A stretch of DNA of 55,490 bases from Acidimicrobiaceae bacterium (GTDB taxonomy: Bacteria > Actinomycetota > Acidimicrobiia > Acidimicrobiales > Bog-793). The notes under the pieces were generated by a model. The model saw only the letters and a list, made by a program, of their open reading frames with translations, was not told the origin of the DNA and did not search any database. The stretch is from positions 1 to 55,490 of the forward strand of contig DAHUZG010000142.1 in assembly GCA_027306715.1 (NCBI GenBank), read 5' to 3'. Each line of letters begins with the position of its first letter. Position 1 is the stretch's first letter. The translations under genes and the position numbers were made by a program. Shown piece after piece: positions 8,151-33,963 of the stretch.

Positions 8151-8152
8151 CG

Positions 8153-11456: not shown

Positions 11457-11524
11457 CGCTCAGTCCTCTCTCCCGGCGTGCGCCGGCGCGCACAGTTCTC
11501 GCCGCCATCGCCGCGAGGCGGCGC

Positions 11525-12190: not shown

Positions 12191-12215
12191 GTCACCTCCT
12201 CACCTCCTCACCCCG

Positions 12216-13148
12216 TCACCCGAGCGGTACCACCGGTGGCGCCGGGAGGATCCGTGCCTCGATCGCTCCGAGCCGGTCGGCTTCGAGGCGCACCTCGTCG
12301 CCCGCCTGCAGCCACGGGTAGGCCTCGTCGCCGTGCACGGCCTGCAGCTCGGCGATGCAGCCGGTGCCGACGGTGCCGCTGCCGATGAGGTCACCCGGGC
12401 GCAGCTCGGTCCCCCGCGAGGCGTAGGCGAGCAGCTGGCCGAAGCTCCAGTGCATCGTCGACCAGTTGCCGCGTGTCCACTCCCTGCCGTTGACGGTGGC
12501 GGTCAGCTCGATGTCGTAGGCGTTCCCCGCTCGGAACGGCTCGAGCTCGTCGGCAGTGACGAGGAACGGGCCGAGGCTCGTCGCCCCGTCCTTGCCCTTG
12601 ACCGGGCCGAGATGGACGGTCATCTCCGCTCGTTGCAGGTCGCGTGCGCTCCAGTCGGAGATCAGCAGGTAGCCGGCGATGTGGCTCTCGGCCTCGGCAG
12701 GCGCCAGGTCGCGCCCGCCTTGCCCGACGACGGCGCCGATCTCGAGCTCGTAGTCGAAGGCGGAGCTGCCGGGGGAGATCTCGACCTCGTCACGGGCGCC
12801 GCGCACCGCTGCGGGGTTCGAGAAGTAGAAGACCGGCTGCTCGTACCACACCGGTTCGACGTCGTGGCCGAAACGGCGCCCGGCGTTTCGGACGTGCTCC
12901 TCGAAGGCCATGAAGTCGCGGACCGACGGCGGCACCGGCACCGGCGCACGAAGCCGAGCCTCGGCGAGCGGCACGACCTCGAGCGGCGTCCGGCGCGCCG
13001 TGTCGCCGGCTGCGGCCAGGCGGTCTCCGTCGTCGCCGAGCAGGTCGATCAGCCGCTCGGTCCCGGAAAGGCCGAGCAGGTGGTCGTCCTCGACGAGCGC
13101 GACGTGCTCGTTGCCGTCGGCGGGTGAGAGATAGGTGGCGAAGCGCAT
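12216..13148 (-). CDS. fumarylacetoacetate hydrolase (FAH) family protein
   Basis: 310 aa. The N-terminal MRFATY.. and the C-terminal FAH-domain blocks (..ELEIGAVVG.., ..GDLIGSGTVGTG..) fit the family. Confidence 0.85.
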   Translation of the reverse strand: MRFATYLSPADGNEHVALVEDDHLLGLSGTERLIDLLGDDGDRLAAAGDTARRTPLEVVPLAEARLRAPVPVPPSVRDFMAFEEHVRNAGRRFGHDVEPVWYEQPVFYFSNPAAVRGARDEVEISPGSSAFDYELEIGAVVGQGGRDLAPAEAESHIAGYLLISDWSARDLQRAEMTVHLGPVKGKDGATSLGPFLVTADELEPFRAGNAYDIELTATVNGREWTRGNWSTMHWSFGQLLAYASRGTELRPGDLIGSGTVGTGCIAELQAVHGDEAYPWLQAGDEVRLEADRLGAIEARILPAPPVVPLG

Positions 13149-13188
13149 CGTCGTCGGCTTCCTCGGAGTCCGGTCGGCCTAGGCGGGC

Positions 13189-14130
13189 CTAGGCAAGGCA
13201 GGTGAGGGGCTTGCCGCCGTTGTAGGCGACCATGTCGGCGAGGGCGGCGGCGGTATCGATGCGGGCACCTCGCGCGGTGCCGGTCAGCTCGGCCATCGCC
13301 CGGTGCAGGTTGCCGACGATGCGCTCGGCGTCGTGCAGCCCGGCGTAGCCGCCGAGATCGGTCTCCCGAGCCGTCTCGAGCGGGCTCAGCCCGGCCTCGA
13401 GCCCGCGCCGCGCCGTCTCCTCGACGAAACGCAGGTACCCGAGCACCTCGTCGATCAGCTCCGGACCGGTCACGGGCCCGTGGCCGGGGACGATCGTCTG
13501 CGCCCCGAGCGGGCGGATCACCTGCTCGAGCACCTCGGCCGCCCCCGCCACCGAGCCCATCAGCAGGAACGGCGTGCCCTCGTTGAAGATCAGGTCGCCT
13601 GAGAAGAGGAGCGATCTCTCCGGCAGCCAGACGATCGAGTCGTTGGTCGTGTGCGCCGGCTGGCCGACGTGGCGCACCTCGCACGGCATCTCGTCGAGCC
13701 ACAGGGTGACCTTGTCGGTGTAGGTGAGGAAGGGGGGCGCCAGCTCGAGGGCGCCCCAGTCGACCTCCTCGAAGATCGGGCCGTAGCTCGGCAGGCCGTG
13801 GTCGAGAACCTCGCGGCGCGTCGCCTCGTGGGCGACGATAGCGGCGCCACCGAAGAGGTAGTTGCCGTAGGTGTGGTCGCCGTGGTGGTGGGTGTTGACA
13901 AGGAGGCGCACCGGCTTGTCGGAGACCTCGGCGATCGCCTTCAGGTAGGCCGCGGTCCGGCGCTCGGTCGAGCAGGCGTCGATGCTGGTCACGCCCTGGC
14001 CGCCGACCAGGAAGCCGGTGTTGTTGATGAACCAGCTGCCGTCGGGCTGGATGTAGGCGAAGACGCCGTCGGCCACCTCCTCCACCCGCGGCGGGCCGAG
14101 CTTCTGATGGTCGTGGTGGCTCGAGCTCAC
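13189..14130 (-). CDS. MBL-fold metallo-hydrolase
   Basis: HHHGDHTYGN metal-binding motif; 313 aa. Confidence 0.85.
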   Translation of the reverse strand: MSSSHHDHQKLGPPRVEEVADGVFAYIQPDGSWFINNTGFLVGGQGVTSIDACSTERRTAAYLKAIAEVSDKPVRLLVNTHHHGDHTYGNYLFGGAAIVAHEATRREVLDHGLPSYGPIFEEVDWGALELAPPFLTYTDKVTLWLDEMPCEVRHVGQPAHTTNDSIVWLPERSLLFSGDLIFNEGTPFLLMGSVAGAAEVLEQVIRPLGAQTIVPGHGPVTGPELIDEVLGYLRFVEETARRGLEAGLSPLETARETDLGGYAGLHDAERIVGNLHRAMAELTGTARGARIDTAAALADMVAYNGGKPLTCLA

Positions 14131-16666: not shown

Positions 16667-17806
16667 GTGCGTGTCCTTGTCGCCGGGGGAGGGATCGGGG
16701 GACTCACCGCGGCCGCGGCGCTCGCCCGGCGCGGCCATGCCGTCGAGGTGGCAGAGCCGGCCGCGGCGGCAGCGGCGTCAGGTGTCGGCATCGCCCAGCC
16801 GGCCAACGCGCTGCGGGTGATGCGGTCGCTCGGGTTGCTCGAGCGCTGCCTCGAGGCGGGTTTCGCCTACGACCGGACGATCTTCTGCGACGCCGCCGGC
16901 CGGCACGTCGTCGAGGTGCCGTCCCGGCTCGGCGGTGACGGCGTGCCGCCGGCGAGCGCCCTCTCGCGCCACGAGCTGCACGAGATCCTCACCGAGGCGG
17001 CGACCTCCGCAGGCGCCGAGCTGCGGCTCGGTCTCGCCGTGGTCGACGTGCACTCCGAGCCCGCAGCGGCGACCGTGGCCTTCTCGAACGGGAGCGAGGC
17101 CGCCTACGACCTCGTGGTCGGTTTCGACGGGATCTACTCGACGGTCCGCTCGGCGACCCATCCTGCGGCCGCCGAGCCGGCGCACACCGGTCACTCGGTC
17201 TGGCGGCTGACCGTGCCGAGGGCGGCGGGCGTGGCCTGCCCGCTGCAGTTCCAGGGCGCCCGGGCCAAGGCCGGGGTGATCCCGCTCGGTCACGATCTGA
17301 TGTACCTGCTGGCGGTGACGGCCGAGGACCGGGTGCGGCGCTTCGAACGGGCCGAGTTCCCCGAGCTGTTGCGGGAGCGGCTCGAGGAGTTCGGCGGCCT
17401 CATCGGGGAGATCCGCGACGGGCCGATCGCCTCCGACGACGTCGTCTACAGCCCGATCCAAGAGGTGATGCTGGCCGAGCCGTGGTGGTCGGGGACGGTG
17501 GCCGTCGCCGGCGACGCCGCCCACGCCTCGGCGCCCCACATCACCCAAGGGGCGGCGATGGCGATGGAGGACGCGCTCGTGCTCGCCGAGCTGCTCGACG
17601 ACCGCACCGCTGTCGCCGTCACCTTGAAGGAGTGGTGCACCCGGCGTTACCCCCGGTGCCGCCTCGTGCAGGACGTGTCCCATGCCATCCTCGCGGCCGA
17701 GATGCTCGAGGGGAGCGCCGAGCTGTCGGCTCGGCTCGAGAGGATGCCGGCGGAGGTACCGCAGCGCCTGCATGCTGTGCAGGAGATCCTCAACCAGCCG
17801 GCATGA
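16667..17806 (+). CDS. FAD-dependent aromatic-ring monooxygenase (third copy, distinct lineage)
   Basis: MRVLVAGGGIGGLTAA fingerprint, GFDGIYSTVR, and GDAAHASAPHITQGAAMAMED. Confidence 0.85.
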   Translation: MRVLVAGGGIGGLTAAAALARRGHAVEVAEPAAAAAASGVGIAQPANALRVMRSLGLLERCLEAGFAYDRTIFCDAAGRHVVEVPSRLGGDGVPPASALSRHELHEILTEAATSAGAELRLGLAVVDVHSEPAAATVAFSNGSEAAYDLVVGFDGIYSTVRSATHPAAAEPAHTGHSVWRLTVPRAAGVACPLQFQGARAKAGVIPLGHDLMYLLAVTAEDRVRRFERAEFPELLRERLEEFGGLIGEIRDGPIASDDVVYSPIQEVMLAEPWWSGTVAVAGDAAHASAPHITQGAAMAMEDALVLAELLDDRTAVAVTLKEWCTRRYPRCRLVQDVSHAILAAEMLEGSAELSARLERMPAEVPQRLHAVQEILNQPA

Positions 17807-17866
17807 GAGCCGACCAGCGCCTGGCGGGTGCCGGGGCCACACTGGCGTCCGGCGAGGCGCCGGCAG

Positions 17867-17917
17867 CCGGGCACGCAGGCAACCCCGGCACGCAGGTAAC
17901 CCCGGCACGCAGGTAAC
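17867..17917. repeat. 17-bp direct repeat x3 (ccsggcacgcaggyaac)
   Basis: Three contiguous units ending about 8 nt before the GAAGGAG SD of the dioxygenase gene. Confidence 0.85.
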
Positions 17918-17938
17918 CCAGTGGAAGAAGGAGACCAG

Positions 17939-18862
17939 ATGGGATCAGTGACACACCTCCGCTACGTCGGGATGGCCGTCCCCGACTACGACACCGCGGT
18001 CAACTTCTATCGCGGCGTCTGGGGCCTGTCGGTCGCCGAGACGGACTCCGGGCTCGCCTTCCTCGCCGCCGAGGCCTCGCCGGAGCCCTACGTCTACCGG
18101 ATCCGCCAGGCCGAGGACGGCCAGCGCCGCCTCGACGTCGTCGGATTCAGTGCTTCTGACCGCACGTCGGTCGACGAGCTGGCGGCGGAGCTCGGATCAG
18201 CCGGCATCCGGCTCGTGAGCGAGCCCGACAGCCTGACGACCCCGGGGGGCGGCTACGGCTTCCGCTTCTTCGACCCCGACGGGCGCGTCGTCGAGGTCGC
18301 CGCCGAGGTCGCCGAGCGCCCGTGCCGCCAGCTCGAGGAGCGCGAGGCGATTCCCCTCGGGCTGAGCCACGTCGTGTTCAACACCACCCAGCGCCAGGTC
18401 CTCGAGTCCTTCGACCGGGACCGGCTCGGCTTCAGGCTCTCGGACTGGCTCGGCGACGGGTTCATGAGCTTCTGGCGCTGCGACGCGGCCCACCACAGCG
18501 TCGCCATGATGCAGATGCCGTTCACCTCGGTCAACCACGTCGCCTTCGAGGTCGCCTCGATCGACGACATGCTGCGTGCCTCAGGGCGCGTTCTCGGCGA
18601 TGGCCGGGCGAAGCCGCAGTGGGGCCCCGGCCGGCACTCGGCGGGCGACAACACCTTCTACTACTTCTTCGACCCGGTCGGGAACGTCTCGGAGTACACC
18701 TCCGATGTGCAGCGCGTCCCCGAGGACTGGCAGCCCCGCCAGCACACGACACCCGACGTCTGGCAGGTCGTGCCGATCCCGGACTTCCGCGGGCAGCCGG
18801 ATGCGCCGCCCGAGCAGTTGCCGCAGAGCGATCCGGGCCTGTTCGTCGCCCCGCCGGTGTGA
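17939..18862 (+). CDS. two-domain VOC-family extradiol ring-cleavage dioxygenase (catechol 2,3-dioxygenase-like)
   Basis: ATG at 17939 lies 6 nt after GAAGGAG. There are two glyoxalase/VOC modules (HLRYVGMAVPD.. and GLSHVVFNT..). Length is about 307 aa. Confidence 0.8.
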   Translation: MGSVTHLRYVGMAVPDYDTAVNFYRGVWGLSVAETDSGLAFLAAEASPEPYVYRIRQAEDGQRRLDVVGFSASDRTSVDELAAELGSAGIRLVSEPDSLTTPGGGYGFRFFDPDGRVVEVAAEVAERPCRQLEEREAIPLGLSHVVFNTTQRQVLESFDRDRLGFRLSDWLGDGFMSFWRCDAAHHSVAMMQMPFTSVNHVAFEVASIDDMLRASGRVLGDGRAKPQWGPGRHSAGDNTFYYFFDPVGNVSEYTSDVQRVPEDWQPRQHTTPDVWQVVPIPDFRGQPDAPPEQLPQSDPGLFVAPPV

Positions 18863-18917: not shown

Positions 18918-19279
18918 GGCAAGGTCGGCGACGAGCCGTTGCTGTTCGCGTCTCGGATGCGTGAGGGTCTGCTCGCAGCCTCGGTAACGATCGGCCTTCA
19001 GGCGATGGCCGAGGTGATGAACGCCGAGGTCACCGAGCTGGCCGGCCCGAAAACAAGGCGCGACAGCGTTGCGCGCCGCCTGCCGCGGCCTTGATGTCTC
19101 AGCGGGCATCTCGTTCGTGCTCGACGGCGGCGAGGCTCTGAAGGATCTGCGCTCGCTCGCCACGAGCCTCGAGAAGCTCAACCCCGACGTGGGGGCAGCC
19201 TTGCGCGAGGGGCTCGACGAGATGTTCACCGTCACCCGGCTCGAGGTGACCGGCACGCTGTTGATGACGCTCGCTGCGC
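18918..19279 (+). mobile_element. decayed IS transposase relic (frameshifted, internally deleted; family uncertain)
   Basis: Two frames carry transposase-like blocks: FASRMREGLLAASVTIGLQAMAEVMNAEVTELAGPK, and GISFVLDGGEALK...PDVGAALREGLDEMFTVTRLEV. The catalytic middle part is absent. Confidence 0.5.
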
Positions 19280-19435
19280 CCGAAGAAGAAGAAAGAGAGT
19301 CGGTCGGAATTCCCCGCAGTAGGCGCGCCAACTGCGCAGCTGGTGAACTCTGCCTAACAAGTATGAACTTGCTACACGTTTACTCCTCTGCTAAAGTGAG
19401 CAACGCCTCTCGATCTATCGAGCAGGAGGGGAAGC

Positions 19436-20515
19436 GTGGATTTCGGTCTGGTTATGACGTTCTCGAATCCAGTCGGCGACATTCCGTGTACCTACCTAGC
19501 CGGCAGCCAGATCGAGCAGGCGGTCCTCGCCGAGGAGCTCGGCTACCAACACGTGTGGACGGCTGGGCACCCTGGGACGAGGATGTATTTTCCGGCCCAG
19601 TTCCCGCTGCTCGGTGCAATGGCGGTGAAGACGAGTCGGATCCGCCTCGGCACCTACATCGTCGCGCTTCCACTCTTCCACCCGCTCCAGGTCGCTGAGG
19701 AGGCGGTAACGATCGACGTAATTTCGAACGGTCGCTTCGATCTTGGCATCGGTGCCGGGAATTTCCTCAATGATTTCGAAGCCTACGGAACAAGACGAGA
19801 ACAGCGTCCTGGCCGGATGGAAGACGGCCTCACGATCATCAGGGGGCTGTGGGGCGACGAAGAATTCTCCTACGAGGGCAAGTACTTTCGCATTCCTCGG
19901 GGATTCAAGCTCCATCCGAGGCCTGTTCAGAAGGAGCTGCCGTTGTGGGTGGCTGGGACGTCGGAGAAGGCGATCGATCGAGCAGCCCGGTTCGGAGCGC
20001 ACTTTGCTGCCACAGGGACCGGCTTCGGCTATTACGAATCGCGGCTGCGCGAGTACGGCTACGACCCGACCACCTTCTCCAAGGCGATCCTGCAGTTCGT
20101 CCATCTGGCGGAGACGACGGAGAAGGCATGGCAAGAGGTGGGAGACGCGGTGATTCGCTGGCTGGAGTACTACAAAGCGGAATTGGTCGAGAAGCATGAG
20201 GACTTCGAGAGCTTCACGCAACTTCCCGGTGGTGCTTTCGGTGTTGACCCGCTACCAGACCCGAGCGACATCGAGAACATGAAGAAGCTCAACTTCCTCG
20301 GCTCACCCTTCATCATCGGCGACCCGCAGACCGCTATCAACTGGGTCAGCAATGCAAGAGATATGGGTGTCACGCACGCCGCGATGTCAATGCAGTTCGG
20401 TGGCCTCCACCCGAAGCTGAGCGAATCGTCGATGCGCCTATTCGCGCACGAGGTGATCCCGGCATTTGCGGGTGAGCAGAGCAATCCCCGATCCGAGGGG
20501 TCGACCGACGCGTGA
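19436..20515 (+). CDS. LLM-class (luciferase-like) flavin-dependent oxidoreductase, paralog 1
   Basis: GTG start after a GGAGGGG SD. AEELGYQHVWTAGH.. and ..GRFDLGIGAGN.. blocks are typical of bacterial luciferase-like monooxygenases. Confidence 0.85.
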   Translation: MDFGLVMTFSNPVGDIPCTYLAGSQIEQAVLAEELGYQHVWTAGHPGTRMYFPAQFPLLGAMAVKTSRIRLGTYIVALPLFHPLQVAEEAVTIDVISNGRFDLGIGAGNFLNDFEAYGTRREQRPGRMEDGLTIIRGLWGDEEFSYEGKYFRIPRGFKLHPRPVQKELPLWVAGTSEKAIDRAARFGAHFAATGTGFGYYESRLREYGYDPTTFSKAILQFVHLAETTEKAWQEVGDAVIRWLEYYKAELVEKHEDFESFTQLPGGAFGVDPLPDPSDIENMKKLNFLGSPFIIGDPQTAINWVSNARDMGVTHAAMSMQFGGLHPKLSESSMRLFAHEVIPAFAGEQSNPRSEGSTDA

Positions 20516-20752: not shown

Positions 20753-21865
20753 GTGAATTTCGGGGTCACATTCGGATTCGCCAACCTCAAGCCTGGCCAG
20801 ATCCCCAGCGCGCGTCTGTTTAAGAGCCAAATCGATCTTGCCGTTCTTGCGGAGGAGCTCGGCTTCGACCACATTTGGACTGCCGGACATCCTGCAACCG
20901 ATATGTACTGCCCTGCGCAGTTTCCACCCCTCGCAGCGATTGCCGCTCGTACCAACAGGATCCGGCTCGGCACATACATCGTGGCGCTACCGCTGTACCA
21001 TCCGCTCCAGGTGACCGAGGAAGCGGTCACGCTGGACGTACTCTCCGACGGGCGATTCGATCTCGGAGTCGGTGCTGGCAACTTCCTCCATGAGTTCGAG
21101 GCGTATGGAGTATCGCGGCGCGAACGTGCTGGGCGCATGGAGGAGGCGCTGACGATCATCCGCGGCTTGTGGACCGAAGAGTCCTTCTCCTTCGAGGGGA
21201 AGTATTGGCGAATTCCTCCCTTCTCGTTAAACCTGCGACCGGTTCAGGCGAACCCTCCGCTGTGGTGTGCAGCAACGGCCGAGGCTGCGTTCGACCGGGC
21301 CGCTCGCCACGGGTGTCACCTCGCTGGTACCGCAACTGGCTTCGACTACTACGAATCGCGACTGCGGGAGCATGGGCACGATCCCGCCGATTTCTTCAAG
21401 GGGATGCTCCAGGTCGTTCACCTCGCCGAGAAGACCGACGAGGCTTGGGAGCGGGCAGCGCCATCGATCCTCGCCCGAGTCCACCGCTACAAGCGCGAAT
21501 TCGACGCACACGACGACTTCGAAGTCTTCCGCCGTCAGCCGGGTGGTTACTTCGGTGTCGACCCCCTGCCCGACTCGGTCGACGACATCGACAAGATCCG
21601 CAGACTTCACTTCCTCGGCGCCCCGTTCGTCGTTGGCAGCCCCGAGGATGTTCGCCGAGCAGTAGAGAGTGCCCAGGACAAAGGCGTTACCCACCTCATC
21701 ATGAACATGGCGCCTCCGAGGCTCGACCCGCGCCTGACCGAGCACTCGATGCGCCTGTTCGCTCGTGAGGTCATGCCGGCGTTCCGGAAGCCCAGGACCG
21801 ATTCTGCGTTGCGACACGAGGCGGACAGAGGCACCCCCGACGCGGCAGTTCCCTTGAGGCGCTAA
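20753..21865 (+). CDS. LLM-class (luciferase-like) flavin-dependent oxidoreductase, paralog 2
   Basis: GTG start after a GAGGAGG SD. It is collinear with 19436-20515, with more than half of positions identical by eye. Confidence 0.85.
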   Translation: MNFGVTFGFANLKPGQIPSARLFKSQIDLAVLAEELGFDHIWTAGHPATDMYCPAQFPPLAAIAARTNRIRLGTYIVALPLYHPLQVTEEAVTLDVLSDGRFDLGVGAGNFLHEFEAYGVSRRERAGRMEEALTIIRGLWTEESFSFEGKYWRIPPFSLNLRPVQANPPLWCAATAEAAFDRAARHGCHLAGTATGFDYYESRLREHGHDPADFFKGMLQVVHLAEKTDEAWERAAPSILARVHRYKREFDAHDDFEVFRRQPGGYFGVDPLPDSVDDIDKIRRLHFLGAPFVVGSPEDVRRAVESAQDKGVTHLIMNMAPPRLDPRLTEHSMRLFAREVMPAFRKPRTDSALRHEADRGTPDAAVPLRR

Positions 21866-22039: not shown

Positions 22040-22843
22040 ATGAGCCGCCTCGTCGAGTACGAGCGTACCGACGGAATCGTGACCATCACGCTCAACCGAC
22101 CGGAGAAGTTGAATGCCCTGAGTCCCGAGATGCTGCGCGAGCTGTGTGATGCGTGGACCCGGTACCGGGACGATGGGGAGGCGAAGGTTGCCATCTTCAC
22201 CGGTGCTGGCCGGGCGTTCACCGCCGGTGCTGATCTGAGCTGGTTCGAGCGCTCCCTCGAGGGTGAGGATCACCTCGGTCCGTTTCTCGACGTGGTCCAG
22301 AGCAACCCTTACTGGTCGGGCCGACTCGACAAGCCGACGATCGTGGCCGTAAAAGGTTGGGTGATCGGCGCCGGCTTCGATCTCGCTCTCCGTGCCGATC
22401 TGAGGGTCGCCGCCGAGAGCGCCACCTTCTGGATGCCCGAGGTGGGGCGCGGGAACATCGTCCCCATCTGGGACAACGTCCCCTACGCGATCGCTGCGGA
22501 GATCATGAGCGGCTTCCCGATTCCAGCACGTCGCGCCTACGAGGTCGGCCTCGTCAACCGGCTCGTCGGGGACGACGCCCTGCTGGACACGGCGGGGGAA
22601 TTGGCAGAGGAGCTGGCCTCCCGCCCTGTGCCCGTGCTTCGCCACGCCTTGAGAACGATCCGGGAGTTGAAGAACTCCCCCTTCGGCGTCTCTCTCGAGT
22701 CGATGCGACTCTACACGAACGAGCTGTCGAAGAACCTGATGACGACAGAGCAGCGGAAGCAGGCAGTCGACGCCTTGCTGGCTGCGAAGCGAACTGATTC
22801 TCAAAGATCTGAGCGACAAAGTGTTGATCCCAAAGGAGCATGA
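22040..22843 (+). CDS. enoyl-CoA hydratase/isomerase (crotonase) family protein
   Basis: ITLNRPEKLNAL..FTGAGRAFTAGADL oxyanion-hole region. The stop abuts the hyuA-like start. Confidence 0.85.
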   Translation: MSRLVEYERTDGIVTITLNRPEKLNALSPEMLRELCDAWTRYRDDGEAKVAIFTGAGRAFTAGADLSWFERSLEGEDHLGPFLDVVQSNPYWSGRLDKPTIVAVKGWVIGAGFDLALRADLRVAAESATFWMPEVGRGNIVPIWDNVPYAIAAEIMSGFPIPARRAYEVGLVNRLVGDDALLDTAGELAEELASRPVPVLRHALRTIRELKNSPFGVSLESMRLYTNELSKNLMTTEQRKQAVDALLAAKRTDSQRSERQSVDPKGA

Positions 22844-24946
22844 GTGATGAGCTTGCGAGTCTCGGTCGACAGTGGTGGCACGTTCACCGACGGGATCTTG
22901 ATCGACGAGCACGGCAGCGTCGCGACTGCGAAGGCGCACACGACGCCGAAAGACCTCACGCTGGGCACGATGGAGTGCCTCTCGCGCCTCGCTTCGGCCT
23001 ACGGCATCACTCGCGGTGACTTGCTGGCAAAGACGAGCACCATCGTCCACGGCACGACGCTTGCCACCAATATCGTAGCGACGAGCTCGGGTGCACGCTT
23101 AGGAACAATCGCTACGAGAGGCTACCGGGACCGCTTGAGCTTTCTGCACGTCGCCAAGGCAGATTTGAAAGGTGACATCCGAGAGGCCGAAGCCGACCTG
23201 TTCGACTTCCGGAGGAAGTACCCGGAGCCGCTCACCCCTCGCCGGCTGACGACCGAGGCGGACGAGCGGCTGAATTACAAGGGTGAGGTGCTCATACCCC
23301 TCGATGAGGAGAGCGTCCGGAAGGCAGTCGCTTACCTCAAGGAGCGAGAGGTTGAGGCGATCGCGGTACTCTTCCTCTTCTCGCACCTGAATCCGGCACA
23401 CGAGCTGCGCACGGGAGAGGTCATCAAAAAAGAGTGGCCCGAGGTGCACGTCTCACTCTCGCACCAGGTGCTGCCCGTATGGGGCGAGGTCGGGCGCTGG
23501 AGCACGACGAGCTTCAGTGCGTACGTCGCGCCGAAGGTGATCGACTACGTGTCGCGGATCGAGAAGCTGCTCCAGCAGAAGGGCTTCGCTGGAGAGCTTC
23601 TCTTCATGCAGTCGAACGGTGGCGTCGCGACGCCGGAGATCATCTGCGAAAATCCCGCTACTCTGCTCGCCTCGGGACCGGCCGCGGGCCCTTCGTTGGG
23701 GTTAGCCCTGGCCCGATCCCACGGTGCCGAGGACCTACTTTCGGTCGACATGGGCGGAACCAGCTTTGACGTGGCCGTCGTTCCCGAGGGGAGGGTCAAT
23801 GTGACCCAAAAGATGGTGGTCGAGGGAAAGCGTTACGCCCTGCCTTCGGTAGACGTGAACGCGGTAGGTGCGGGTGGTGGCTCGATCGCCTGGCTCGACC
23901 CGAGCGGCCGTCTCCAGGTTGGTCCGCAAAGCGCCGGCGCCTACCCAGGTCCCGCCTGCTATGGATTCGGGGGAACCGAGCCTACTGTCACCGACGCCGA
24001 CGTCGTGCTCGGTTACATCGATCCGGACTTCTTTATGGGCGGCGAGACGCGTCTGCACAAGGACCTGGCCGAACGGGCGATAGAGCAGCAAATTGCAGAA
24101 CCGCTGGGACTGTCGCTCGAAAAGGCAGCTGCAGCGATTTACGACGTAGTGAACGCGAAGATGGCTGGAGCGATCGGCGTCGTGTTCACGCGGCGGGGCT
24201 ACGACCCGCGCGACTTCGTGATCTGTTGCGGTGGAGGCGCTGGCGCTGTGCACGGGGCGCGGTTGATGCAGGAGCTCGGGATCAAGGACCTGCTCGTGCC
24301 AAAAGTGGCTCCGGTCTACTGCGCCTTCGGGATGATGTACGCCGATCTCCGTCACAACTTCACTCGCCCGTATCTCGCCGAGTCGACGAAGGTGGATCTC
24401 ACGAGGATCAACGATCTTTACCAGGTGATGGAGCAAGAAGTCGTCGAGATCCTCGAGCGAGAAGGTGTCGCTCGCGAGGACATGGTGATCGAGAAGACGA
24501 TCGACATGCGCTACTACGGGCAGGTTCGAGAGCAGACAGCAGACATGCCTCCGGGTATGGTCACAGAAGAGACGTTCGGAGTAGCTCAGTCGAACTTCCA
24601 CCAGAAGCACCGTACGGTGATCGGCTATGCCGACCAGAGCTACCCCACCGAAGTGGTCCGGCTCCATCTGGCCGGAACGGCAAAGGTCAAGCCGCCGGAA
24701 CCGCAGAAGGTATCGATAGATGGCGCCAACGCGGCGCGGACCCTGAAAGGCATACGGCCGGCATTCTTCAGCGAGTTCGACGACTTCGTCGATACGAGGA
24801 TCTACGACGGGAACCTTCTCAGTGCTGGCACCTCGCTCGAAGGGCCCTGCATCGTAGAAGAGCCGATGACCACCGTGGTGATCCCGCCGACGCTGATCCT
24901 GAGCGTGGACGAGTTCGGCAATTACACGACGATGACGAAAGGGTGA
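22844..24946 (+). CDS. hydantoinase/oxoprolinase A-type subunit (acetone/acetophenone carboxylase beta-like)
   Basis: 700 aa. The N-terminal VSVDSGGTFTDG ATPase motif and VDMGGTSFDV are present. Confidence 0.9.
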   Translation: MMSLRVSVDSGGTFTDGILIDEHGSVATAKAHTTPKDLTLGTMECLSRLASAYGITRGDLLAKTSTIVHGTTLATNIVATSSGARLGTIATRGYRDRLSFLHVAKADLKGDIREAEADLFDFRRKYPEPLTPRRLTTEADERLNYKGEVLIPLDEESVRKAVAYLKEREVEAIAVLFLFSHLNPAHELRTGEVIKKEWPEVHVSLSHQVLPVWGEVGRWSTTSFSAYVAPKVIDYVSRIEKLLQQKGFAGELLFMQSNGGVATPEIICENPATLLASGPAAGPSLGLALARSHGAEDLLSVDMGGTSFDVAVVPEGRVNVTQKMVVEGKRYALPSVDVNAVGAGGGSIAWLDPSGRLQVGPQSAGAYPGPACYGFGGTEPTVTDADVVLGYIDPDFFMGGETRLHKDLAERAIEQQIAEPLGLSLEKAAAAIYDVVNAKMAGAIGVVFTRRGYDPRDFVICCGGGAGAVHGARLMQELGIKDLLVPKVAPVYCAFGMMYADLRHNFTRPYLAESTKVDLTRINDLYQVMEQEVVEILEREGVAREDMVIEKTIDMRYYGQVREQTADMPPGMVTEETFGVAQSNFHQKHRTVIGYADQSYPTEVVRLHLAGTAKVKPPEPQKVSIDGANAARTLKGIRPAFFSEFDDFVDTRIYDGNLLSAGTSLEGPCIVEEPMTTVVIPPTLILSVDEFGNYTTMTKG

Positions 24947-24951
24947 GGGAA

Positions 24952-26781
24952 ATGGCGGCCGCGCAGATGCAAGCACCGACGGCGACCAGGGCGGCTGTCG
25001 TCGACCCGACCACGTTGTCTGTAGTCTGGAACCGCTTCGAGCACATCCTGGCTGAGATCGGAGACAAGGCACTCTACGCGACGCAGTCCTTCGTGATGGC
25101 GAACGTTCGCGACCTCGGCCAGAGCCTGCTCGATCCACGAGGCGACATCGTGGCTGTCGCCGCATATGTGCCGATACATGTCTTCACGGCAGAGGTATCG
25201 GTGAAGTCCTTCCTGCAGAAGTTCGAGGGCGACTTTCACCCTGGTGACTTCTTTCTCGGGAATGATGCTTACATCATCCGAAGCGGCCACCTCCCGGACT
25301 GGACGCTCCTGCGGCCGATCTTCTACGAAGACGAGCTATTCGGGTTCTTCCAGTTCCGGGGCCACATGGCCGACACGGGTGGTTTCCTGCCGGGAGGCTA
25401 TGCGCCGGGCGCCTACGACATCATCGCGGAGGGCTTGAACATCCCGCCGATCCGGATCATCAAGGAGGGCGTGCTCGACGAGGAGCTGTGGGGCCTGGTC
25501 AAGCGGAACATCCGCAACTCGGACGTGGTCGAGATGGACGTCTTCAACGTGAACGGTGCCATGGCTCAGGGCGAGGCCGAGCTGAGCCGCCTACTTGACA
25601 AATATGGCATCGAGACCGTGAAGCAGTGCATGGAGGAGATGCTGGCATCTGGCGAACGGGCTGCACGGGCCCAGATCGCAACAATGCGGGATGGTGTCTA
25701 CTACGGAGAGTCAGGGACAGACTGGGACGGCCAGACGGACAAACCGGTCAACGTGCAGGTCAAGCTCACTATCGAAGGGGACGAGATGACATTCGACCTC
25801 TCCGAGAGCGATCCTCAGTGCTCGTTCATCAACCTCCCATGGGGGACGACCGTCTACTCGTGCATGGAGGCCGTCTATTCGATGCTCGACCCGCATGTCC
25901 CGAAGAACAGCGGCAGCATGCGCCCGGTTCACGTGGTGGCAAAGGAGGGTACGGTGGTGAACCCCACCTACCCGGCCACGGTGGGCGCTTCGCAGATCAC
26001 GATCAGCGTGCCGCTGGTCGACGCATGCTGGGAGGCCCTCGCGCAGCTGCTACCCGAGCGAGCAATGGGTGGCTATTGTCGACACCACTGCCCGATCAAT
26101 ATCGGCATGGACCCTCGCGTGATCGACCCGCGTACCGGGACTGTGAAGCAGTACTTCGGAGAGACGTTCGCGAGCGACGGCAGTGGCGGTGCTATGAGTG
26201 GCTTCGACGGCTGGCAGGGCGTCGGGAACTACCGCTTCGTTGGCTGCATGGTAAGGCCGGACATGGAGGTCTTTGAGACGCAGATCCCCTATCGCGTGAT
26301 GCGCTACGAGCTCCTCCAGGACTGGGAGGGAGCGGGGGAGTACCGCGGGGGGCCCGGCGTATACCTCGAGATGGTCTGCAATGAAGACTTGCCGCCGGAC
26401 GCAGCGACCCTCCTTCAGACCGGTAACAGCGATGGAATGCGCTTCGCGCCAAAGGGCGTCGCGGGCGGCGGAGACGGGCGCCTGAACGAGATGTGGATCG
26501 GGAACCCTCTGTCCGGGGAGCGGCGGCGGCTCCCGACGATGAGCCTCGAGCACGTCGCGCCGGGTGAGATCGTCTATCACTGGTCCTCGGGAGGAGGTGG
26601 CTGGGGAGATCCGCTGAGCCGTGCGCTGGCGAGCGTGCGGGAAGATGTCATCGAGGGCTTGGTCTCGCTCACGCGCGCTCGCGATGTCTACGGCGTTGTC
26701 GTCGACGAGGCGACGATGGAGGTCGACGAGCAGGCGACCGAAGTGCTGCGCAAAGACATCAAGGCAAAGAGAACTTTGTAG
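24952..26781 (+). CDS. hydantoinase B/oxoprolinase-type subunit, paralog 1
   Basis: ATG at 24952, 5 nt after the hyuA-like stop. DPTTLSVVWNRFEHI.., ..FQFRGHMADTGG.. and C-terminal GGGGWGDPL. The ORF-track extension back to 24226 overlaps hyuA out of frame. Confidence 0.9.
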   Translation: MAAAQMQAPTATRAAVVDPTTLSVVWNRFEHILAEIGDKALYATQSFVMANVRDLGQSLLDPRGDIVAVAAYVPIHVFTAEVSVKSFLQKFEGDFHPGDFFLGNDAYIIRSGHLPDWTLLRPIFYEDELFGFFQFRGHMADTGGFLPGGYAPGAYDIIAEGLNIPPIRIIKEGVLDEELWGLVKRNIRNSDVVEMDVFNVNGAMAQGEAELSRLLDKYGIETVKQCMEEMLASGERAARAQIATMRDGVYYGESGTDWDGQTDKPVNVQVKLTIEGDEMTFDLSESDPQCSFINLPWGTTVYSCMEAVYSMLDPHVPKNSGSMRPVHVVAKEGTVVNPTYPATVGASQITISVPLVDACWEALAQLLPERAMGGYCRHHCPINIGMDPRVIDPRTGTVKQYFGETFASDGSGGAMSGFDGWQGVGNYRFVGCMVRPDMEVFETQIPYRVMRYELLQDWEGAGEYRGGPGVYLEMVCNEDLPPDAATLLQTGNSDGMRFAPKGVAGGGDGRLNEMWIGNPLSGERRRLPTMSLEHVAPGEIVYHWSSGGGGWGDPLSRALASVREDVIEGLVSLTRARDVYGVVVDEATMEVDEQATEVLRKDIKAKRTL

Positions 26782-26839
26782 GGGCTGGACTCGATGCAGA
26801 CGCGCCCGACGGTGGGCGGGACGGGAAAGGGAGCGTGAG

Positions 26840-27091
26840 TTGCGTACGGTGAGTGTGACGCGGAGCGCGCCAGAAAAGGTCGTCTACCCTCCTGGCCCGA
26901 GTGGTGACAGGTGGGCCGACTCGCTGGACCGTGCCCCTGAGCGGGTGCGGGCTGATGTCCTGGAGGGCCTCGTTTCGCTCGGTCGGGCGCAGGAGGTTCG
27001 CAGCGTGGTCCTCAGCGACGCCACTCTCGCTGTAGGTGTCGGCGTGCCCGTCCTCCGGCCGGTCGCGCTCGGAGCGGGACCGGACGTATGA
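26840..27091 (+). pseudogene. relic of a hydantoinase-B C-terminus (possibly still a small coupled ORF)
   Basis: The 83 codons EKVVYPPGPSGDRWADSLDRAPERVRADVLEGLVSLGRAQEVRSVVLSDATL align with the last ~55 residues of both HyuB paralogs (..GGGGWGDPLSRALASVREDVIEGLVSLTRARDVYGVVVDEATM). The GGGGWG motif is degraded. There is a TTG start with an upstream GGGAAAGGGAG, and the stop overlaps the next start (ATGA). Confidence 0.55.
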
Positions 27092-28881
27092 CGGGCATCG
27101 GCACCACCAGCACAGTCGATCCCACGACATTGTCAGTCGTGTGGAACCGGCTCGATCAGATCCTTACCGAGATCGGGGAGAAGGTGCTCCATGCGACGCA
27201 GTCGTTCGTGATGGCGAACGTCCGCGACCTTGGCCAGTCGTTCCTCAACCGCGATGGCGAACTTGTCGCTGTCGCCGCGTTTCTTCCCAGTCACATGTTC
27301 ATCTCCGAGGTCGCGATCAAAGGGTTCCTCGAGAAGTTCGGAGACGACCTGCATCCCGGCGACTTGATGATCGGAAACGACCCTTACATCGTCCGAAGCG
27401 GACACCTCCCTGACTGGACATTCATCCGGCCAATCTTCTACGGACGAGAGTTGCTCGGCTTCTTCCAGTTCCGCGGTCACATGGCCGACACCGGCGGGTT
27501 CCTGCCTGGCGGATATGCTCCGGGGGCCTACGACATCATTGCCGAAGGCTTGAACATCCCACCTATCCGAATCATCAAGGCAGGCGTGGTCGACGAGGAG
27601 CTGTGGGGCCTCGTCCTCCGGAACGTCAGGAACCCCGACGTCGTCCGGATGGACGCCATGTTGATCAACGGTGCGATGGAGCAAGGCGACCAGGATCTGA
27701 TCAGATTGGTCGAACGGTACGGATCTGGAGCGGTCCTGGCCTGCATGGACGAGATGATCGCTGCCGGCGAGCGCGCGGCTCGAGCCGAGATCGCCAAGAT
27801 CCCCGACGGCGACTACTACGGCGAGTCGGCCACCGACTGGGACGGCCAAACGGACCGCCCGGTCTGGGTTCGGGCGAAGTTGACGGTTGAGGGCGAGAGC
27901 CTGACCTTCGATCTTTCTGAGAGCGACCCCCAGGCGACGTTCGTCAACACTCCGTGGGGAACGACGCTCTACGCCGCGACCCGAACGGTGTTCGCGATGA
28001 TCGACCCTCACGTTCCAAAGAACCACGGCAGCATGAAGCAGGTCAGCGTCGTGACCAAACCGGGGACGGTGGTGCATCCGATCTACCCTGCCACAGTCGG
28101 TGCCAGCGGGATCAGCGTCGGCGGGATCATCACCGAGGCCTGTCAGCTGGCACTCGCGCAGGCGCTGCCGGATGCCTCATTCGGGATGTTCGCCAGGCAC
28201 CTGTGCCCGATCAACGTCGGCATGGACCCCGACACGATCGACCCACGGACCGGGACCATCCGGCAGTACTTCGCCGAGCACTTCGCCAGCGACGGCAGCG
28301 CAGGTGCCTTCAAAGGGTACGACGGGTGGCCTGGAATCGGCTACTTCGGCTTCGTTGGCTGCCTTGTCCGCGCCGATATCGAAGTGTTCGAGACCCAAGT
28401 CCCCTTCTGGGTCCGCCGGTACGAGCTGCTCACCGACTGGGAAGGGGCAGGTGAGTTCCGCGGCGGCCCCGGCGTCTACGTCGAGATGATAGCGAGCGAT
28501 CGCCCACCGGAGGCGCCCGCCCTTCTGACGACTGGAAACAGCGACGGGAGCCGATTCCCGCCACGCGGCGCCGCCGGCGGGCTCGACGGCCCGAAGGCTG
28601 AGATGTGGATAGAGAACCCAGAGACAGGTGGTACGCGGATCCTGCCAACGATGGCGAACATGTTCATCGCGCCCGGGGAGATCTGCCACACGCGTGCACC
28701 TGGCGGAGGCGGGTGGGGCAACCCGCTGCACCGCAATTCCGAGCGGGTGCTCGCAGACGTGGTGGACGGGCTCGTCTCGGCCGACCGAGCGAAGCAGATC
28801 TATGGCGTAGTGGTGGACCCCGCGACCCTCACTCTCGACCTGGTTGAGACTGCGCGACTGCGACAAGATCGGATGGCTTGA
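27088..28881 (+). CDS. hydantoinase B/oxoprolinase-type subunit, paralog 2
   Basis: 597 aa, collinear with 24952-26781. About two thirds or more of positions are identical by eye, including FQFRGHMADTGGFLPGGYAPGAYDIIAEGLNIPPIRIIK. Confidence 0.9.
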   Translation: MTGIGTTSTVDPTTLSVVWNRLDQILTEIGEKVLHATQSFVMANVRDLGQSFLNRDGELVAVAAFLPSHMFISEVAIKGFLEKFGDDLHPGDLMIGNDPYIVRSGHLPDWTFIRPIFYGRELLGFFQFRGHMADTGGFLPGGYAPGAYDIIAEGLNIPPIRIIKAGVVDEELWGLVLRNVRNPDVVRMDAMLINGAMEQGDQDLIRLVERYGSGAVLACMDEMIAAGERAARAEIAKIPDGDYYGESATDWDGQTDRPVWVRAKLTVEGESLTFDLSESDPQATFVNTPWGTTLYAATRTVFAMIDPHVPKNHGSMKQVSVVTKPGTVVHPIYPATVGASGISVGGIITEACQLALAQALPDASFGMFARHLCPINVGMDPDTIDPRTGTIRQYFAEHFASDGSAGAFKGYDGWPGIGYFGFVGCLVRADIEVFETQVPFWVRRYELLTDWEGAGEFRGGPGVYVEMIASDRPPEAPALLTTGNSDGSRFPPRGAAGGLDGPKAEMWIENPETGGTRILPTMANMFIAPGEICHTRAPGGGGWGNPLHRNSERVLADVVDGLVSADRAKQIYGVVVDPATLTLDLVETARLRQDRMA

Positions 28882-31671: not shown

Positions 31672-33294
31672 TTGAGTCTGGCCGAATCCGCCCAGCCGCT
31701 GGAGACCGAGGAGCAGGAGGACCGAGTCGTCGTCCGCCTGATGCGGCCCGACGTGAAGAACGCCATTGGTCTCGCTACCGTGGAAATGCTCCACGAGGTC
31801 TGCGCGGGGCTGGAACGCCGACCGCGAATGCTCGTCCTCACGGGACACGAGGGCGTGTTCGCCTCGGGTGCCGATGTTCGTGAATTGCGAGACCCGAATC
31901 GCCACGACGCGCTCGCCGGAATCAACAGCTCGCTGTTCGAGCGCATTCGGCGGCTGCCACTACCCACGGTAGCCGCTATCGATGGCCTCGCGTTCGGAGC
32001 GGGGGCTGAGCTCGCCTACGCGTGTGACTTTCGGGTCGCCACCGAACGCGCTCGCTTCGGCAACCCGGAAGTCTCGCTGGGAATCCTGGCTACGGCGGGC
32101 GCCTGCTGGAGGCTGCGCGAGCTCGTCGGTGAGGCGCTCGCGTACGAGATGTTGTTCGCCGGACGAACGCTCGACGCCCAAGCTGCGGTCGAGTCCCACC
32201 TCGTGACCGAGGTCGCGGGGCAGCGTGATCTCCTCGCGGCGGCCCACGCCCTCCTCGACAAGATCGGGAGGGGTACGCCGCTCGCACTCCGCCTGACGAA
32301 ACTCGCGCTGCAAATTCCAGCCAGCGCGCACCCGGCGTTCGACAACGTCGCACAAGCGGTGTTCTTCGAGACCGAGGAGAAGCACGCTCGGATGACGACC
32401 TTTCTGGAGCGGCATGATCGATCGCCTGATCCTTCGGAAGAATCGTCGACAGCGCCGCCGCGAGCAGCAGGCGTGCTCGGTGGTGGCCGGATGGGGGCAG
32501 GCATCGCCCATGCGCTGTTGTCTGCGGGCTGCCGAGTGCAACTGGTCGAGATCACGGTAGACGCCGGCGAGTCCGCTCGCGCACGAATAGAGGCGTCTCT
32601 GCGCGAGAGCGACCGGCGCGGCTCGCTGCCCGTGGCCGTCACGACCGCAATGGCGCGACTCTCGATCAGCAGCGAACCCAGCTCGCTCGTCGGCTCGGAG
32701 ATCGTCGTCGAGGCCCTGCCGGAAGACCCGGCCCTGAAGGCGCGACTTCTCGTCGCGGTCGAGGCCGTGCTCGACCCCGGCGCGCTGCTGGCTACGAACA
32801 CGAGCTCGTTGTCGATCGACGAGCTGAGCGCGGCACTCGAGCGCCCGCGCAACTTCATAGGGCTGCATTTCTTCAACCCCGTGCCAGCGAGCGAGCTGGT
32901 CGAGGTGGTCGTCGGCTCACGCACGAGCGACGACACGGTGGAGCGCGCCCGGCGATGGGTGGAGGAGCTAGGCAAGACTTCGGTGACGATCCACGACTCG
33001 CCGGGATTCGCCACGAGCCGCTTGGGGGTCGCGCTGGGGCTGGAAGCGATCCGTATGCTCGAAGAGGGGGTGGGTTCTGCCGAGGACATCGACACGGCCA
33101 TGGTCCTTGGCTACCGACACCTCGTCGGGCCGCTGCGGCTCACCGACCTCGTCGGCCTCGACGTACGCCTCGCGATCGCAGAGCACCTCGCGAGCCGCCT
33201 CGGTCCGCGCTTCGAGCCACCCGAGGTTCTACGCCGCAAGGTTGAGGCCGGCGAGCTCGGTCGCAAATCCGGGCAGGGCTTCTACAGCTGGTGA
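31672..33294 (+). CDS. bifunctional enoyl-CoA hydratase / 3-hydroxyacyl-CoA dehydrogenase (FadB-like fusion)
   Basis: N-terminal crotonase region (..NAIGLATVEML..GVFASGADVREL..) plus a C-terminal NAD fingerprint VLGGGRMGAGIAHAL and 3-hydroxyacyl-CoA dehydrogenase blocks (..GLHFFNP..). TTG start as in the ORF track. Confidence 0.85.
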   Translation: MSLAESAQPLETEEQEDRVVVRLMRPDVKNAIGLATVEMLHEVCAGLERRPRMLVLTGHEGVFASGADVRELRDPNRHDALAGINSSLFERIRRLPLPTVAAIDGLAFGAGAELAYACDFRVATERARFGNPEVSLGILATAGACWRLRELVGEALAYEMLFAGRTLDAQAAVESHLVTEVAGQRDLLAAAHALLDKIGRGTPLALRLTKLALQIPASAHPAFDNVAQAVFFETEEKHARMTTFLERHDRSPDPSEESSTAPPRAAGVLGGGRMGAGIAHALLSAGCRVQLVEITVDAGESARARIEASLRESDRRGSLPVAVTTAMARLSISSEPSSLVGSEIVVEALPEDPALKARLLVAVEAVLDPGALLATNTSSLSIDELSAALERPRNFIGLHFFNPVPASELVEVVVGSRTSDDTVERARRWVEELGKTSVTIHDSPGFATSRLGVALGLEAIRMLEEGVGSAEDIDTAMVLGYRHLVGPLRLTDLVGLDVRLAIAEHLASRLGPRFEPPEVLRRKVEAGELGRKSGQGFYSW

Positions 33295-33394
33295 CACGTC
33301 CCCGATCTAGTTCGAGGTGGGAGACCCGACGCACTACGGGAAGCGACCGCCAAAGCCGCCGGGACTGCCACCCCAAGCTCGGAGCCGGCCTGTC

Positions 33395-33963
33395 CAAAGG
33401 GGATAGGCGCTACCGCGCGCGGATGGCCGAGGTGGGTGCGGTCTACGAACTGGCGCCCTTGGCCGAAGTTGAGAGCCACAGCCTGGAGGTTGCGGCCGTA
33501 GTCGACCTGATCGATGTTATGGAGCACATCTGGTCTGCCGCGTGGTGCTTCTCCGCCCACAACGACCAGGCCGTAGAGGACTGGGTGCGCGCCAAGACGC
33601 TCGCCGTGCTGGAGGGCAATGCCCGTGACGCCGCTGCGGGGATCCACCGGCGAGCCACGGTCGCCCGACTCACCAAGAAGAAGCGCAAGGAGGCTGATGC
33701 CTGTGCCACCTACCGGACCAACAAGGCTCTCTACCTCGATCACCCGACGGCGTTGGCGGCCGGGTAGCCCATCGCCACCGGCATCATCGAGGGGACCTGC
33801 CGATACCTTGTTGCCGACCGGATGGTCTTATGCAGTCCCCAAGCTACGCGCGGTCCGCTCCAACGGCGATCTCGACGACTACTGGGCCTTTCACCTCGAC
33901 CACGAACGGCAGCGAGCCCACGAATCCCGCTACGCGGACGGCGCGATCCCCCTTGCCGCGTAG
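33395..33963 (+). mobile_element. ISKra4-like transposase pseudogene (5'-truncated, internally deleted, at least 2 frameshifts)
   Basis: Blocks spread over three frames: RMAEVGAVYE; [40 protein letters not shown]; [19 protein letters not shown]; and [31 protein letters not shown]. Confidence 0.6.

Follow-up and report, generated by a model that had tools for sequence, protein, structure and literature searches.

Gene content of the locus

The window analysed here is a 55 kb stretch of DNA (contig DAHUZG010000142.1) from an Acidimicrobiaceae bacterium. Between 19.4 and 33.3 kb it carries a row of genes centred on a hydantoinase-type (Hyu) system with one A-type subunit, HyuA, and two paralogous B-type subunits, HyuB and HyuB'. 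The row reads two luciferase-like (LLM) flavin/F420 oxidoreductases, a crotonase, HyuA, HyuB, a HyuB remnant, HyuB', a double CoA-transferase and a protein that combines enoyl-CoA hydratase (ECH) and 3-hydroxyacyl-CoA dehydrogenase (HADH) domains, all on the + strand (Table 1). Pfam assigns every protein of the operon, with E-values from 1e-34 to 1e-155. An initial annotation, made from the letters alone, had proposed the order crotonase-HyuA-HyuB-relic-HyuB' with tight junctions, and the coordinates of the open reading frames (ORFs) bore this out: the crotonase and HyuA abut (0 nt), HyuA and HyuB are separated by 5 nt, and an 83-codon ORF in the remnant overlaps the start of HyuB' through ATGA. 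The lengths it gave for HyuA and HyuB' were also correct; HyuB has 609 residues and not 610. HyuA gave a single tblastn match and is the sole A-type gene in the window.

Table 1. Features of the locus and of its edges.
Feature	Coordinates	Strand	Evidence and remarks
IS256-family transposase remnant, frame-broken	18960..19410 (approximate)	+	left edge of low-GC island
LLM1, luciferase-like flavin/F420 oxidoreductase 1	19436..20515	+	Pfam Bac_luciferase, E=5e-58
LLM2, luciferase-like oxidoreductase 2	20753..21865	+	Pfam, E=2.6e-60
Head crotonase (ECH)	22040..22843	+	Pfam ECH_1, E=3e-34
HyuA, ATP-binding (ASKHA) subunit, 700 aa	22844..24946	+	Pfam Hydant_A_N, Hydantoinase_A, Hydant_A_C
HyuB, metal-containing catalytic subunit, paralog 1, 609 aa	24952..26781	+	Pfam Hydantoinase_B, full profile length, E=9e-131
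Degenerate remnant, last ~100 codons of a third HyuB-type gene	26783..27091 (306-nt spacer)	+	contains 83-codon ORF 26840-27091
HyuB', metal-containing catalytic subunit, paralog 2, 597 aa	27088..28881	+	Pfam Hydantoinase_B, full profile length, E=2.6e-121
Fused double family-III (CaiB/BaiF) CoA-transferase, 794 aa	29058..31442	+	Pfam CoA_transf_3, two stretches, E=1e-155
FadB-like bifunctional enoyl-CoA hydratase / 3-hydroxyacyl-CoA dehydrogenase	31672..33294	+	Pfam ECH_1, 3HCDH_N, 3HCDH
ISKra4-family transposase fragment	33291..33767	+	NCBIfam NF033572, E=8.5e-10, profile positions 282-375 of 422; right edge of island

HyuB and HyuB' are 65% identical over 588 aa, close to the two thirds that had been estimated by eye. 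Both retain the Asp-His-Asp-His metal tetrad (D54/H113/D116/H138 in HyuB and D47/H106/D109/H131 in HyuB'), which aligns with D41/H99/D102/H124 of CapB, the B subunit of the caprolactamase CapAB, in which the mutants of all four residues are inactive (PMC8453981). In a 38-sequence family alignment each copy also retains 102 of the 103 columns that do not vary among the other members, so the check for a B copy lacking active-site residues, suggested in the initial annotation, revealed no such loss. Tajima relative-rate tests detected no asymmetry between the paralogs, and HyuB' is not accelerated. At conserved residues the third-codon-position identity of the pair is 54%, with no high-identity tracts, which points to an old split, without gene conversion, and to purifying selection on both genes. 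When we compared them with those of a sister strain (L013 in our survey, GCA_027315075.1), we counted six synonymous and no nonsynonymous single-nucleotide polymorphisms (SNPs), four of them in HyuB, of which only the last ~900 nt were covered, and two in HyuB'; the 176-nt intergenic stretch after HyuB' contains three. Judged by their sequences, both B copies look functional. We ruled out HyuB' as a pseudogene on the basis of its intact motifs, its invariant columns and its synonymous-only SNPs. A recent local duplication or gene conversion was likewise rejected, given the third-position identity and the fact that the two copies are sisters in 0 of 100 bootstraps, and the early impression that this is no fresh duplication held.

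At 8 of the 15 positions aligned to the CapB substrate pocket HyuB differs from HyuB', and most of the aligned positions differ from CapB; the comparison is a sequence alignment to CapB at 35% identity and not a structural one, and it suggests that the predicted pockets of the two copies are different. A plasmid collection contained no relative of HyuB' above 35% identity, and a search of 5.8 billion proteins returned none above 69% identity.

The remnant between the two B genes, whose 83-codon ORF had been recognised as a relic from the outset, proved to be a decayed HyuB C-terminus. It shares 41% identity with residues 505-591 of HyuB and matches positions 499-564 of the CapB model (E=1.6e-4); its GGGGWG motif is destroyed and reads GPSGDRWA. 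Its identity to every candidate source lineage is 40-49%, and the gene predictions for the L013 and L021 contigs do not include it. With its glycine motif lost and no gene called, we discarded the idea of a real small gene or a gamma-like subunit. Because the stop of the relic overlaps the start of HyuB', HyuB' already lay directly behind another B-type gene in an ancestor.

Next, we placed the proteins in their superfamily. The HyuA translation contains DSGGTFTD, DMGGTS and GAYPGP, which correspond to the ATP motifs DxGGTxTD, DxGGT and GxxPGP (defined in PMC8453981) and are those expected of the amidohydrolase (Hyd) branch. The best solved relative of all three proteins is CapAB (6yra), with 494 bits for HyuA (6yra_A), 246 for HyuB and 254 for HyuB', followed by N-methylhydantoinase (7hk5), then acetophenone carboxylase (Apc) and then acetone carboxylase (Acx). 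HyuB' reaches 115 bits with Apc-beta and 35 bits with Acx-alpha, the latter over residues 40-158. Congruently, the CapA and CapB models of NCBIfam (NF050156 / NF050157) rank first for HyuA, HyuB and HyuB'. The Apc models give 111-391 bits against cutoffs of 1250-1500, which places the proteins outside Apc, and the 35 bits to Acx-alpha together with the lack of a gamma gene place them outside Acx. The subunit lengths are of the Hyd type, in which subunits are shorter (581 aa for CapB) than their counterparts in Apc (684 aa for Apc-beta) and Acx (776 aa for Acx-alpha). Hyd enzymes are recognised by adjacent hydA and hydB genes in that order, no gamma gene and shorter subunits (Weidenweber et al., PMC5214803); HyuA and HyuB conform to this arrangement, from which the locus deviates by its extra hydB' gene and the hydB relic. 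As the initial annotation had stated, there is no gamma-like subunit: the remaining gaps of the island (174-306 nt) hold no gamma-like ORF, those other than the relic spacer (174-237 nt) have no room for such a gene, and we detected no gamma or epsilon gene. On these sequence features we assign the locus to the Hyd (hydrolase) branch rather than to the carboxylases, and the absence of a gamma subunit is to be expected since the proteins belong to that branch.

The operon lies in an island with a GC content of 61-66%, compared with 72-74% in the surrounding DNA. GC drops from 72% at the left edge, where translated fragments of the IS256 remnant match annotated transposases of the IS256 / mutator type carried by plasmids of Mycobacterium, Rhodococcus and Sulfobacillus (tblastn, best E 1e-5; the remnant has no Pfam or NCBIfam match), and returns to 68-74% downstream of the ISKra4 fragment. 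The low GC and the insertion sequence (IS) fragments on both sides suggest that this is a horizontally acquired, rearranged catabolic island. The same B-relic-B' junctions are present in L013, where 3254 nt contain 10 SNPs relative to the window, and in L021 (Logan assembly of SRR13766253). Since three independent assemblies have the same junctions, the arrangement is real and an assembly chimera is ruled out. A promoter and terminator scan yielded nothing exceeding the shuffled expectation. Just outside the island, DNA of host GC (16667-18862) encodes an extradiol-dioxygenase-like protein and a FAD-dependent monooxygenase of the aromatic type, which scores 370.5 bits with PRK06847 (cutoff 372).

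The genes that accompany HyuAB encode flavin and CoA-thioester enzymes. LLM1 and LLM2 are tandem paralogs, 58% identical, neither of which reaches any NCBIfam cutoff; LLM2 is 59-60% identical to LLM genes inside two related loci, L012 (B-LLM-A-ligase) and L016 (A-B-LLM-ligase). No flavin reductase and no thiolase were detected in the island. The head crotonase is a member of a conserved subfamily. In it an Asp replaces the first catalytic Glu (GAGFDLAL...PEVGRG) and the second Glu (PEV) is kept. Its orthologs at L019 5705-6475, L024 1698-2468 and L035 7031-7801 are 57-59% identical (51% for L029); the former three sit directly upstream of HyuA or CaiB-HyuA and have in common the sequence GAG[FL]DL, with Asp in place of the first Glu. 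The ECH domain of the FadB-like protein keeps the canonical Glu/Glu pair (GAGAELA...PEV). The halves of the double CoA-transferase are 23% identical, and a Ser of the N-half aligns with the conserved Asp of the C-half; the protein may thus be a built-in pseudo-dimer with one active site. Double CoA-transferases of ~800 aa are widespread (Amycolatopsis, Actinomadura, rhizobia). The nearest homologs of this one (46-49%) adjoin MaoC dehydratase and IclR genes instead of HyuAB, so it is not a conserved HyuAB partner.

Related loci and the recurrence of a second B gene

To place the two B genes among their relatives we surveyed ~30 non-redundant related loci, taken from JGI metagenomes, the genomes of GTDB species and further assemblies. 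HyuB is sister to P0003/L014 (78-80% identity, bootstrap 100), and HyuB' groups with the B proteins of L012, L015 and L016 (bootstrap 78). These six sequences, HyuB and HyuB' included, form one clade with a bootstrap of 95. The closest relatives of each paralog are single B genes, in the arrangements A-B-ligase (L014), B-LLM-A-ligase (L012) and A-B-LLM-ligase (L016), so that the window combines two old lineages. A single B gene is in fact the rule, being found in ~25 of the ~30 loci.

Gene context separates the relatives into two types. In a sister clade of about nine loci (L001, L003, L005, L006, L009, L010, L020, L027 and L034) an Asp/Glu/hydantoin-racemase-family gene is followed by HyuA and HyuB, except in L020, where the racemase lies downstream; the B proteins are 58-62% identical to HyuB', and all of the loci lack both CoA genes and a second B. 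The distributions of the second B and the racemase are thus complementary, for two-B loci are never accompanied by a racemase in the survey. The other type is linked to CoA. An orthologous AMP-dependent ligase (63-92% mutual identity) is present in eight loci (L012, L014, L016, L025, L026, L029, L031 and L035), a family-III CoA-transferase in L019 and L024, a crotonase ortholog in four loci, an LLM or FMN-reductase partner in six and a Peptidase_S15 gene in three. Counting the orthologous crotonase, acyl-CoA ligase and family-III CoA-transferase together, ~10 loci other than the window carry such genes beside related HyuAB pairs. The window belongs to this CoA-linked type and, because the ligase, ECH and CaiB orthologs recur beside its relatives, the association with CoA is a property of the clade and not an accident of the island. 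The CoA-thioester link that the initial annotation had drawn from the downstream CoA-transferase and FadB-like enzyme, both confirmed by Pfam, was therefore well placed.

The survey of gene order gave a mixed answer: the exact combination of the window is confined to its own species, but its crotonase-A-B-B order recurs in L035, a distant 131-kb JGI contig from an unrelated metagenome that carries ECH (59%), HyuA, HyuB, HyuB, FMN reductase and AMP-ligase genes in this order. Upstream of them lie HADH, short-chain dehydrogenase/reductase (SDR) and Peptidase_S15 genes and a gene of the PF04199 cyclase family, which includes kynurenine formamidase and isatin hydrolase. The L035 B genes (10001-13719) are 91% identical, with a synonymous divergence (dS) of 0.54 and a ratio of nonsynonymous to synonymous divergence (dN/dS) of 0.09, and are sisters in 100 of 100 bootstraps. 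The second B of L035 is a tandem duplication kept under purifying selection and, since the window pair are sisters in none of the bootstraps, the two duplications are independent. The 53 differences between the L035 copies are ~two-fold enriched at residues ~285-360, where dN peaks at 0.10-0.12; the corresponding part of CapB, its mixed beta-sheet domain, faces the partner B and contributes pocket residues. No second HyuA lies within 10 kb on either side of the L035 pair.

Other candidates are less clear. L025 has the order HyuB, HyuA, HyuB, ligase, FMN reductase, and its B genes, which share 62% identity, belong to separate clades. We downgraded it as a clean case of one A and two B genes because its close relative L026 has a second, divergent HyuA (7276-9273, 48% identical to that of the window) a few kb downstream of its A-B-ligase-FMN-reductase genes, just beyond the point at which the L025 contig ends; L025 may thus represent two separate A-B enzymes. 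The A-type duplication of L026 resembles the situation in acetophenone carboxylase. In L015 (4679-5750, the same as L032 4865-5930) HyuA is reduced to separate N- and C-terminal fragments that adjoin an intact HyuB and a molybdopterin oxidoreductase, so that two B genes stand beside a decayed HyuA, and in L011 (7780-11732) HyuA and HyuB both appear split. Gene flux in the family seems high, to judge by these decaying copies. The clean one-A/two-B cases are the window and L035, both in the CoA-linked clade.

Proposed function and alternatives

Our proposal, to which we give an even chance, is that the locus encodes an ATP- and metal-dependent ring-opening amidohydrolase of the Hyd branch, in which one A subunit serves two functional, non-redundant B subunits within a horizontally acquired CoA-thioester island. 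By analogy with CapAB, HyuA would bind ATP and phosphorylate the carbonyl of a cyclic amide of the lactam, imide or hydantoin type, and the activated intermediate would move to a HyuB-type subunit, where the Asp-His-Asp-His metal site would hydrolyse it. The two paralogs would offer two differently shaped hydrolytic sites for a pair of related substrates or isomers. As two CapB subunits form the core of the CapAB heterotetramer, A-B-B-A (PMC8453981), BB, B'B' and BB' cores are all conceivable, and the assemblies could be A2B2, A2B'2 and/or a mixed A-B-B'-A. An alpha-alpha'-beta type of heterocomplex, as argued for in the initial annotation, is structurally possible; we give non-obligate sharing of HyuA the higher weight over a fixed mixed core because in other organisms each of the two B lineages works as the only B. 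The substrate or its ring-opened product would carry a carboxylate that is handled as a CoA thioester by the double CaiB transferase, the head crotonase and the FadB-like enzyme, and the LLM oxidoreductases would act upstream, probably in preparing the substrate. As to the nature of the substrate, a predicted CoA-pathway lactamase (IaaCE), the skatole-induced sktH-I-J-K genes of Rhodococcus ruber and the PF04199 gene of L035 together hint at an oxindole-type or other carboxylated N-heterocyclic lactam.

Several observations weigh against this proposal. The scores of 633.8 (HyuA), 304.2 (HyuB) and 296.0 bits (HyuB') lie far below the 1000-bit caprolactamase cutoff, so the proteins are outside the CapAB group and are homologs, not orthologs, of its members; HyuB is 34.6% identical to CapB, and the nearest characterised enzyme is thus only ~35% identical in its B subunit. 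The predicted difference in pockets comes from an alignment at this same distance. The gene combination is restricted to one species and, with the nearest double-CaiB homologs lying away from HyuAB, the island is a mosaic in which the co-function of every gene is assumed. CapAB itself depends on bicarbonate (PMC8453981), which leaves a small probability for a carboxylation-type chemistry. Lastly, the analysis covers 55 kb of the genome, and a second HyuA may lie elsewhere in it.

The alternatives differ in what they make of HyuB'. HyuB and HyuB' might form a fixed heterodimeric core (A-B-B'-A) with specialised halves, neither of them active alone. Such a core would be sterically natural, given that the core of Hyd enzymes is a B-B dimer, and it would agree with the packing of both B genes in one tight operon behind a single A, with the conservation of both copies, with the ATGA overlap of the relic, which shows that HyuB' once stood directly behind another B-type gene, and with the tandem B pair that L035 retains under purifying selection. 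We nevertheless regard it as unlikely, because the single-B loci include the closest relatives of HyuB (L014) and of HyuB' (L012 and L016), each lineage being evidently competent as a homodimer, and because the independent origins of the B pairs fit an extra specificity at least as well. HyuB' and the relic upstream of it could instead be a redundant leftover from the fusion of two clusters into a mosaic. The IS remnants that flank the low-GC island, the relic as a scar of recombination or deletion, the highly rearranged gene order of the clade (B-LLM-A, A-B-LLM, A-B-ligase) and the decaying HyuA and HyuB genes of L015/L032 and L011 would all suit a passenger of this kind. Yet the HyuB' ORF is intact over 597 codons, with all metal ligands, the invariant residues and an unaccelerated rate, its SNPs are synonymous only, and it displays none of the decay seen in the adjacent relic; we hold this explanation to be very unlikely. 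There is just as slim a chance, in our judgement, that HyuB' pairs with a second HyuA elsewhere in the genome, giving two separate A-B enzymes, as the divergent HyuA of L026, a relative of the two-B locus L025, might indicate. HyuB' forms part of the same operon, its start overlapping the ORF before it, and a second HyuA was found neither in the 55 kb window nor within 10 kb of the L035 pair, all of which speaks against it.

A different chemistry, and not a different use of HyuB', is at issue in the last alternative, a ketone carboxylase that would convert a methyl ketone with ATP into a beta-keto acid, to be activated by the CoA-transferase and processed by the FadB-like enzyme. This was one of the two options given in the initial annotation, and our results disfavour it to the point of being highly improbable. 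In its favour, a beta-keto acid would go well with the CoA-transferase and HADH downstream, one fold and one metal site are common to Acx, Apc and Hyd enzymes, and CapAB requires bicarbonate too. However, HyuB' matches CapB (254 bits) far better than it does Apc-beta or Acx-alpha, the scores fall far under the NCBIfam Apc cutoffs, the B proteins are without the N- and C-terminal extensions of Acx-alpha and Apc-beta, and the island has neither a gamma subunit nor a thiolase. Returning to the ring-opening amidohydrolase, a bolder version of it would see in these loci an unrecognised class of Hyd-type lactamases acting on CoA-linked cyclic amides through an asymmetric A-B-B'-A core, with a second B recruited repeatedly and independently (in the window, L035 and possibly L025) to provide a stereo- or regio-complementary pocket; we find this quite unlikely. 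Such a pocket would do the job that the adjacent racemase-family gene may do in the single-B sister clusters, given that a racemase and two B genes never occur together in one locus.

Hyd-branch enzymes open very stable lactams under mild conditions, hence the biocatalytic interest of caprolactamase and valerolactamase, and they have so far been described as strict two-gene hydA-hydB systems. The locus and its relatives define a widespread clade, known mostly from metagenome-assembled genomes, in which the enzyme is tied to CoA activation, to a crotonase of its own and to flavin enzymes, which implies a catabolic pathway for a carboxylated N-heterocycle. On at least two occasions within this clade the enzyme has gained a second catalytic subunit that selection has maintained. 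The clade thereby offers a concrete case for the evolution of substrate range or subunit asymmetry in ATP-driven hydrolases, and it supplies candidate enzymes for new lactam substrates.

Comparison with known systems

In the literature we found no paper describing a hydA-hydB-hydB' cluster or a CoA-linked HyuAB clade. The enzyme family, the placement in the hydrolase branch and a predicted CoA-linked Hyd precedent are known; the recurrent second B and the conserved crotonase, ligase and flavin context are undescribed.

Among characterised enzymes the locus is most like CapAB of Pseudomonas jessenii (PDB 6YRA; PMC8453981) and the valerolactamase OplBA of P. putida, which likewise consist of an A subunit of ~700 aa and a B subunit of ~580-610 aa with no gamma subunit, and have the same ATP motifs and Asp-His-Asp-His metal site, CapAB being the best-scoring structure for all three proteins. 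It differs from CapAB in the number of B genes, CapAB having one, in the identity of only ~35% in the B subunit and in scores below the equivalog cutoffs. Moreover, the caprolactam pathway continues via an aminotransferase, and none is present in the window locus.

Acetophenone carboxylase belongs to the same superfamily and sets a precedent for a paralogous subunit pair in one complex. The initial annotation had invoked it as an enzyme with two B-type subunits, but the analogy is inverted: in Apc the alpha and alpha' subunits are the ATP-binding ones and the single beta is of the HyuB type (PMC5214803, PMC8453981). In agreement with this, HyuA matches both 5l9w_B (ApcC) and 5l9w_b (ApcA) as well as both the ApcA and ApcC models of NCBIfam, and HyuB' matches 5l9w_A alone. 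Since its duplicated pair (30% identical) is A-type, Apc was rejected as a model and is no precedent for two B subunits; it is, in addition, a carboxylase that depends on two further subunits, gamma and epsilon.

The iaa operon of Aromatoleum aromaticum is likened to the locus by gene context alone. It sets a Hyd-branch pair, IaaC and IaaE, in a CoA-thioester pathway that also includes the CoA ligase IaaB, the family-III CoA-transferase IaaL and steps akin to beta-oxidation, and IaaCE is predicted, and only predicted, to open the lactam of 2-oxoindoleacetyl-CoA (PMC5214803, PMC8360864, PMC8453981). The window has this type of context, with a family-III CoA-transferase, an ECH and an ECH+HADH protein in the same operon. 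IaaC and IaaE (564 aa) are each encoded once in the iaa operon, whose B12 mutase, acyl-CoA dehydrogenase and other genes are absent from the window locus. The earlier statement that no characterised pathway has such a combination must therefore be softened, as the iaa operon already joins IaaCE, a CoA ligase and a family-III CoA-transferase.

Finally, two further kinds of cluster resemble parts of the clade. The classical hyuA-hyuB clusters with a hydantoin racemase (Pseudomonas sp. NS671) have their counterpart in the sister group of loci with a racemase-family gene, HyuA and HyuB; they have a single B and no CoA genes, whereas the clade of the window has CoA-activating, crotonase and flavin enzymes and no racemase. 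In the skatole (skt) cluster of Rhodococcus ruber R1, SktIJ are 34%/42% identical to CapB/CapA, and the cluster is induced ~1000-fold by skatole (bioRxiv 10.1101/2024.12.29.630347). Here too there is a single B, and no CoA enzymes are described. The likeness, which is one of gene content alone, is that the sktH-I-J-K genes bring together the caprolactamase-like pair, an SDR and a gene of the Xaa-Pro-peptidase family, in a cluster that also has a flavin monooxygenase, just as the relatives L012, L014 and L035 are accompanied by Peptidase_S15, SDR and flavin enzymes.

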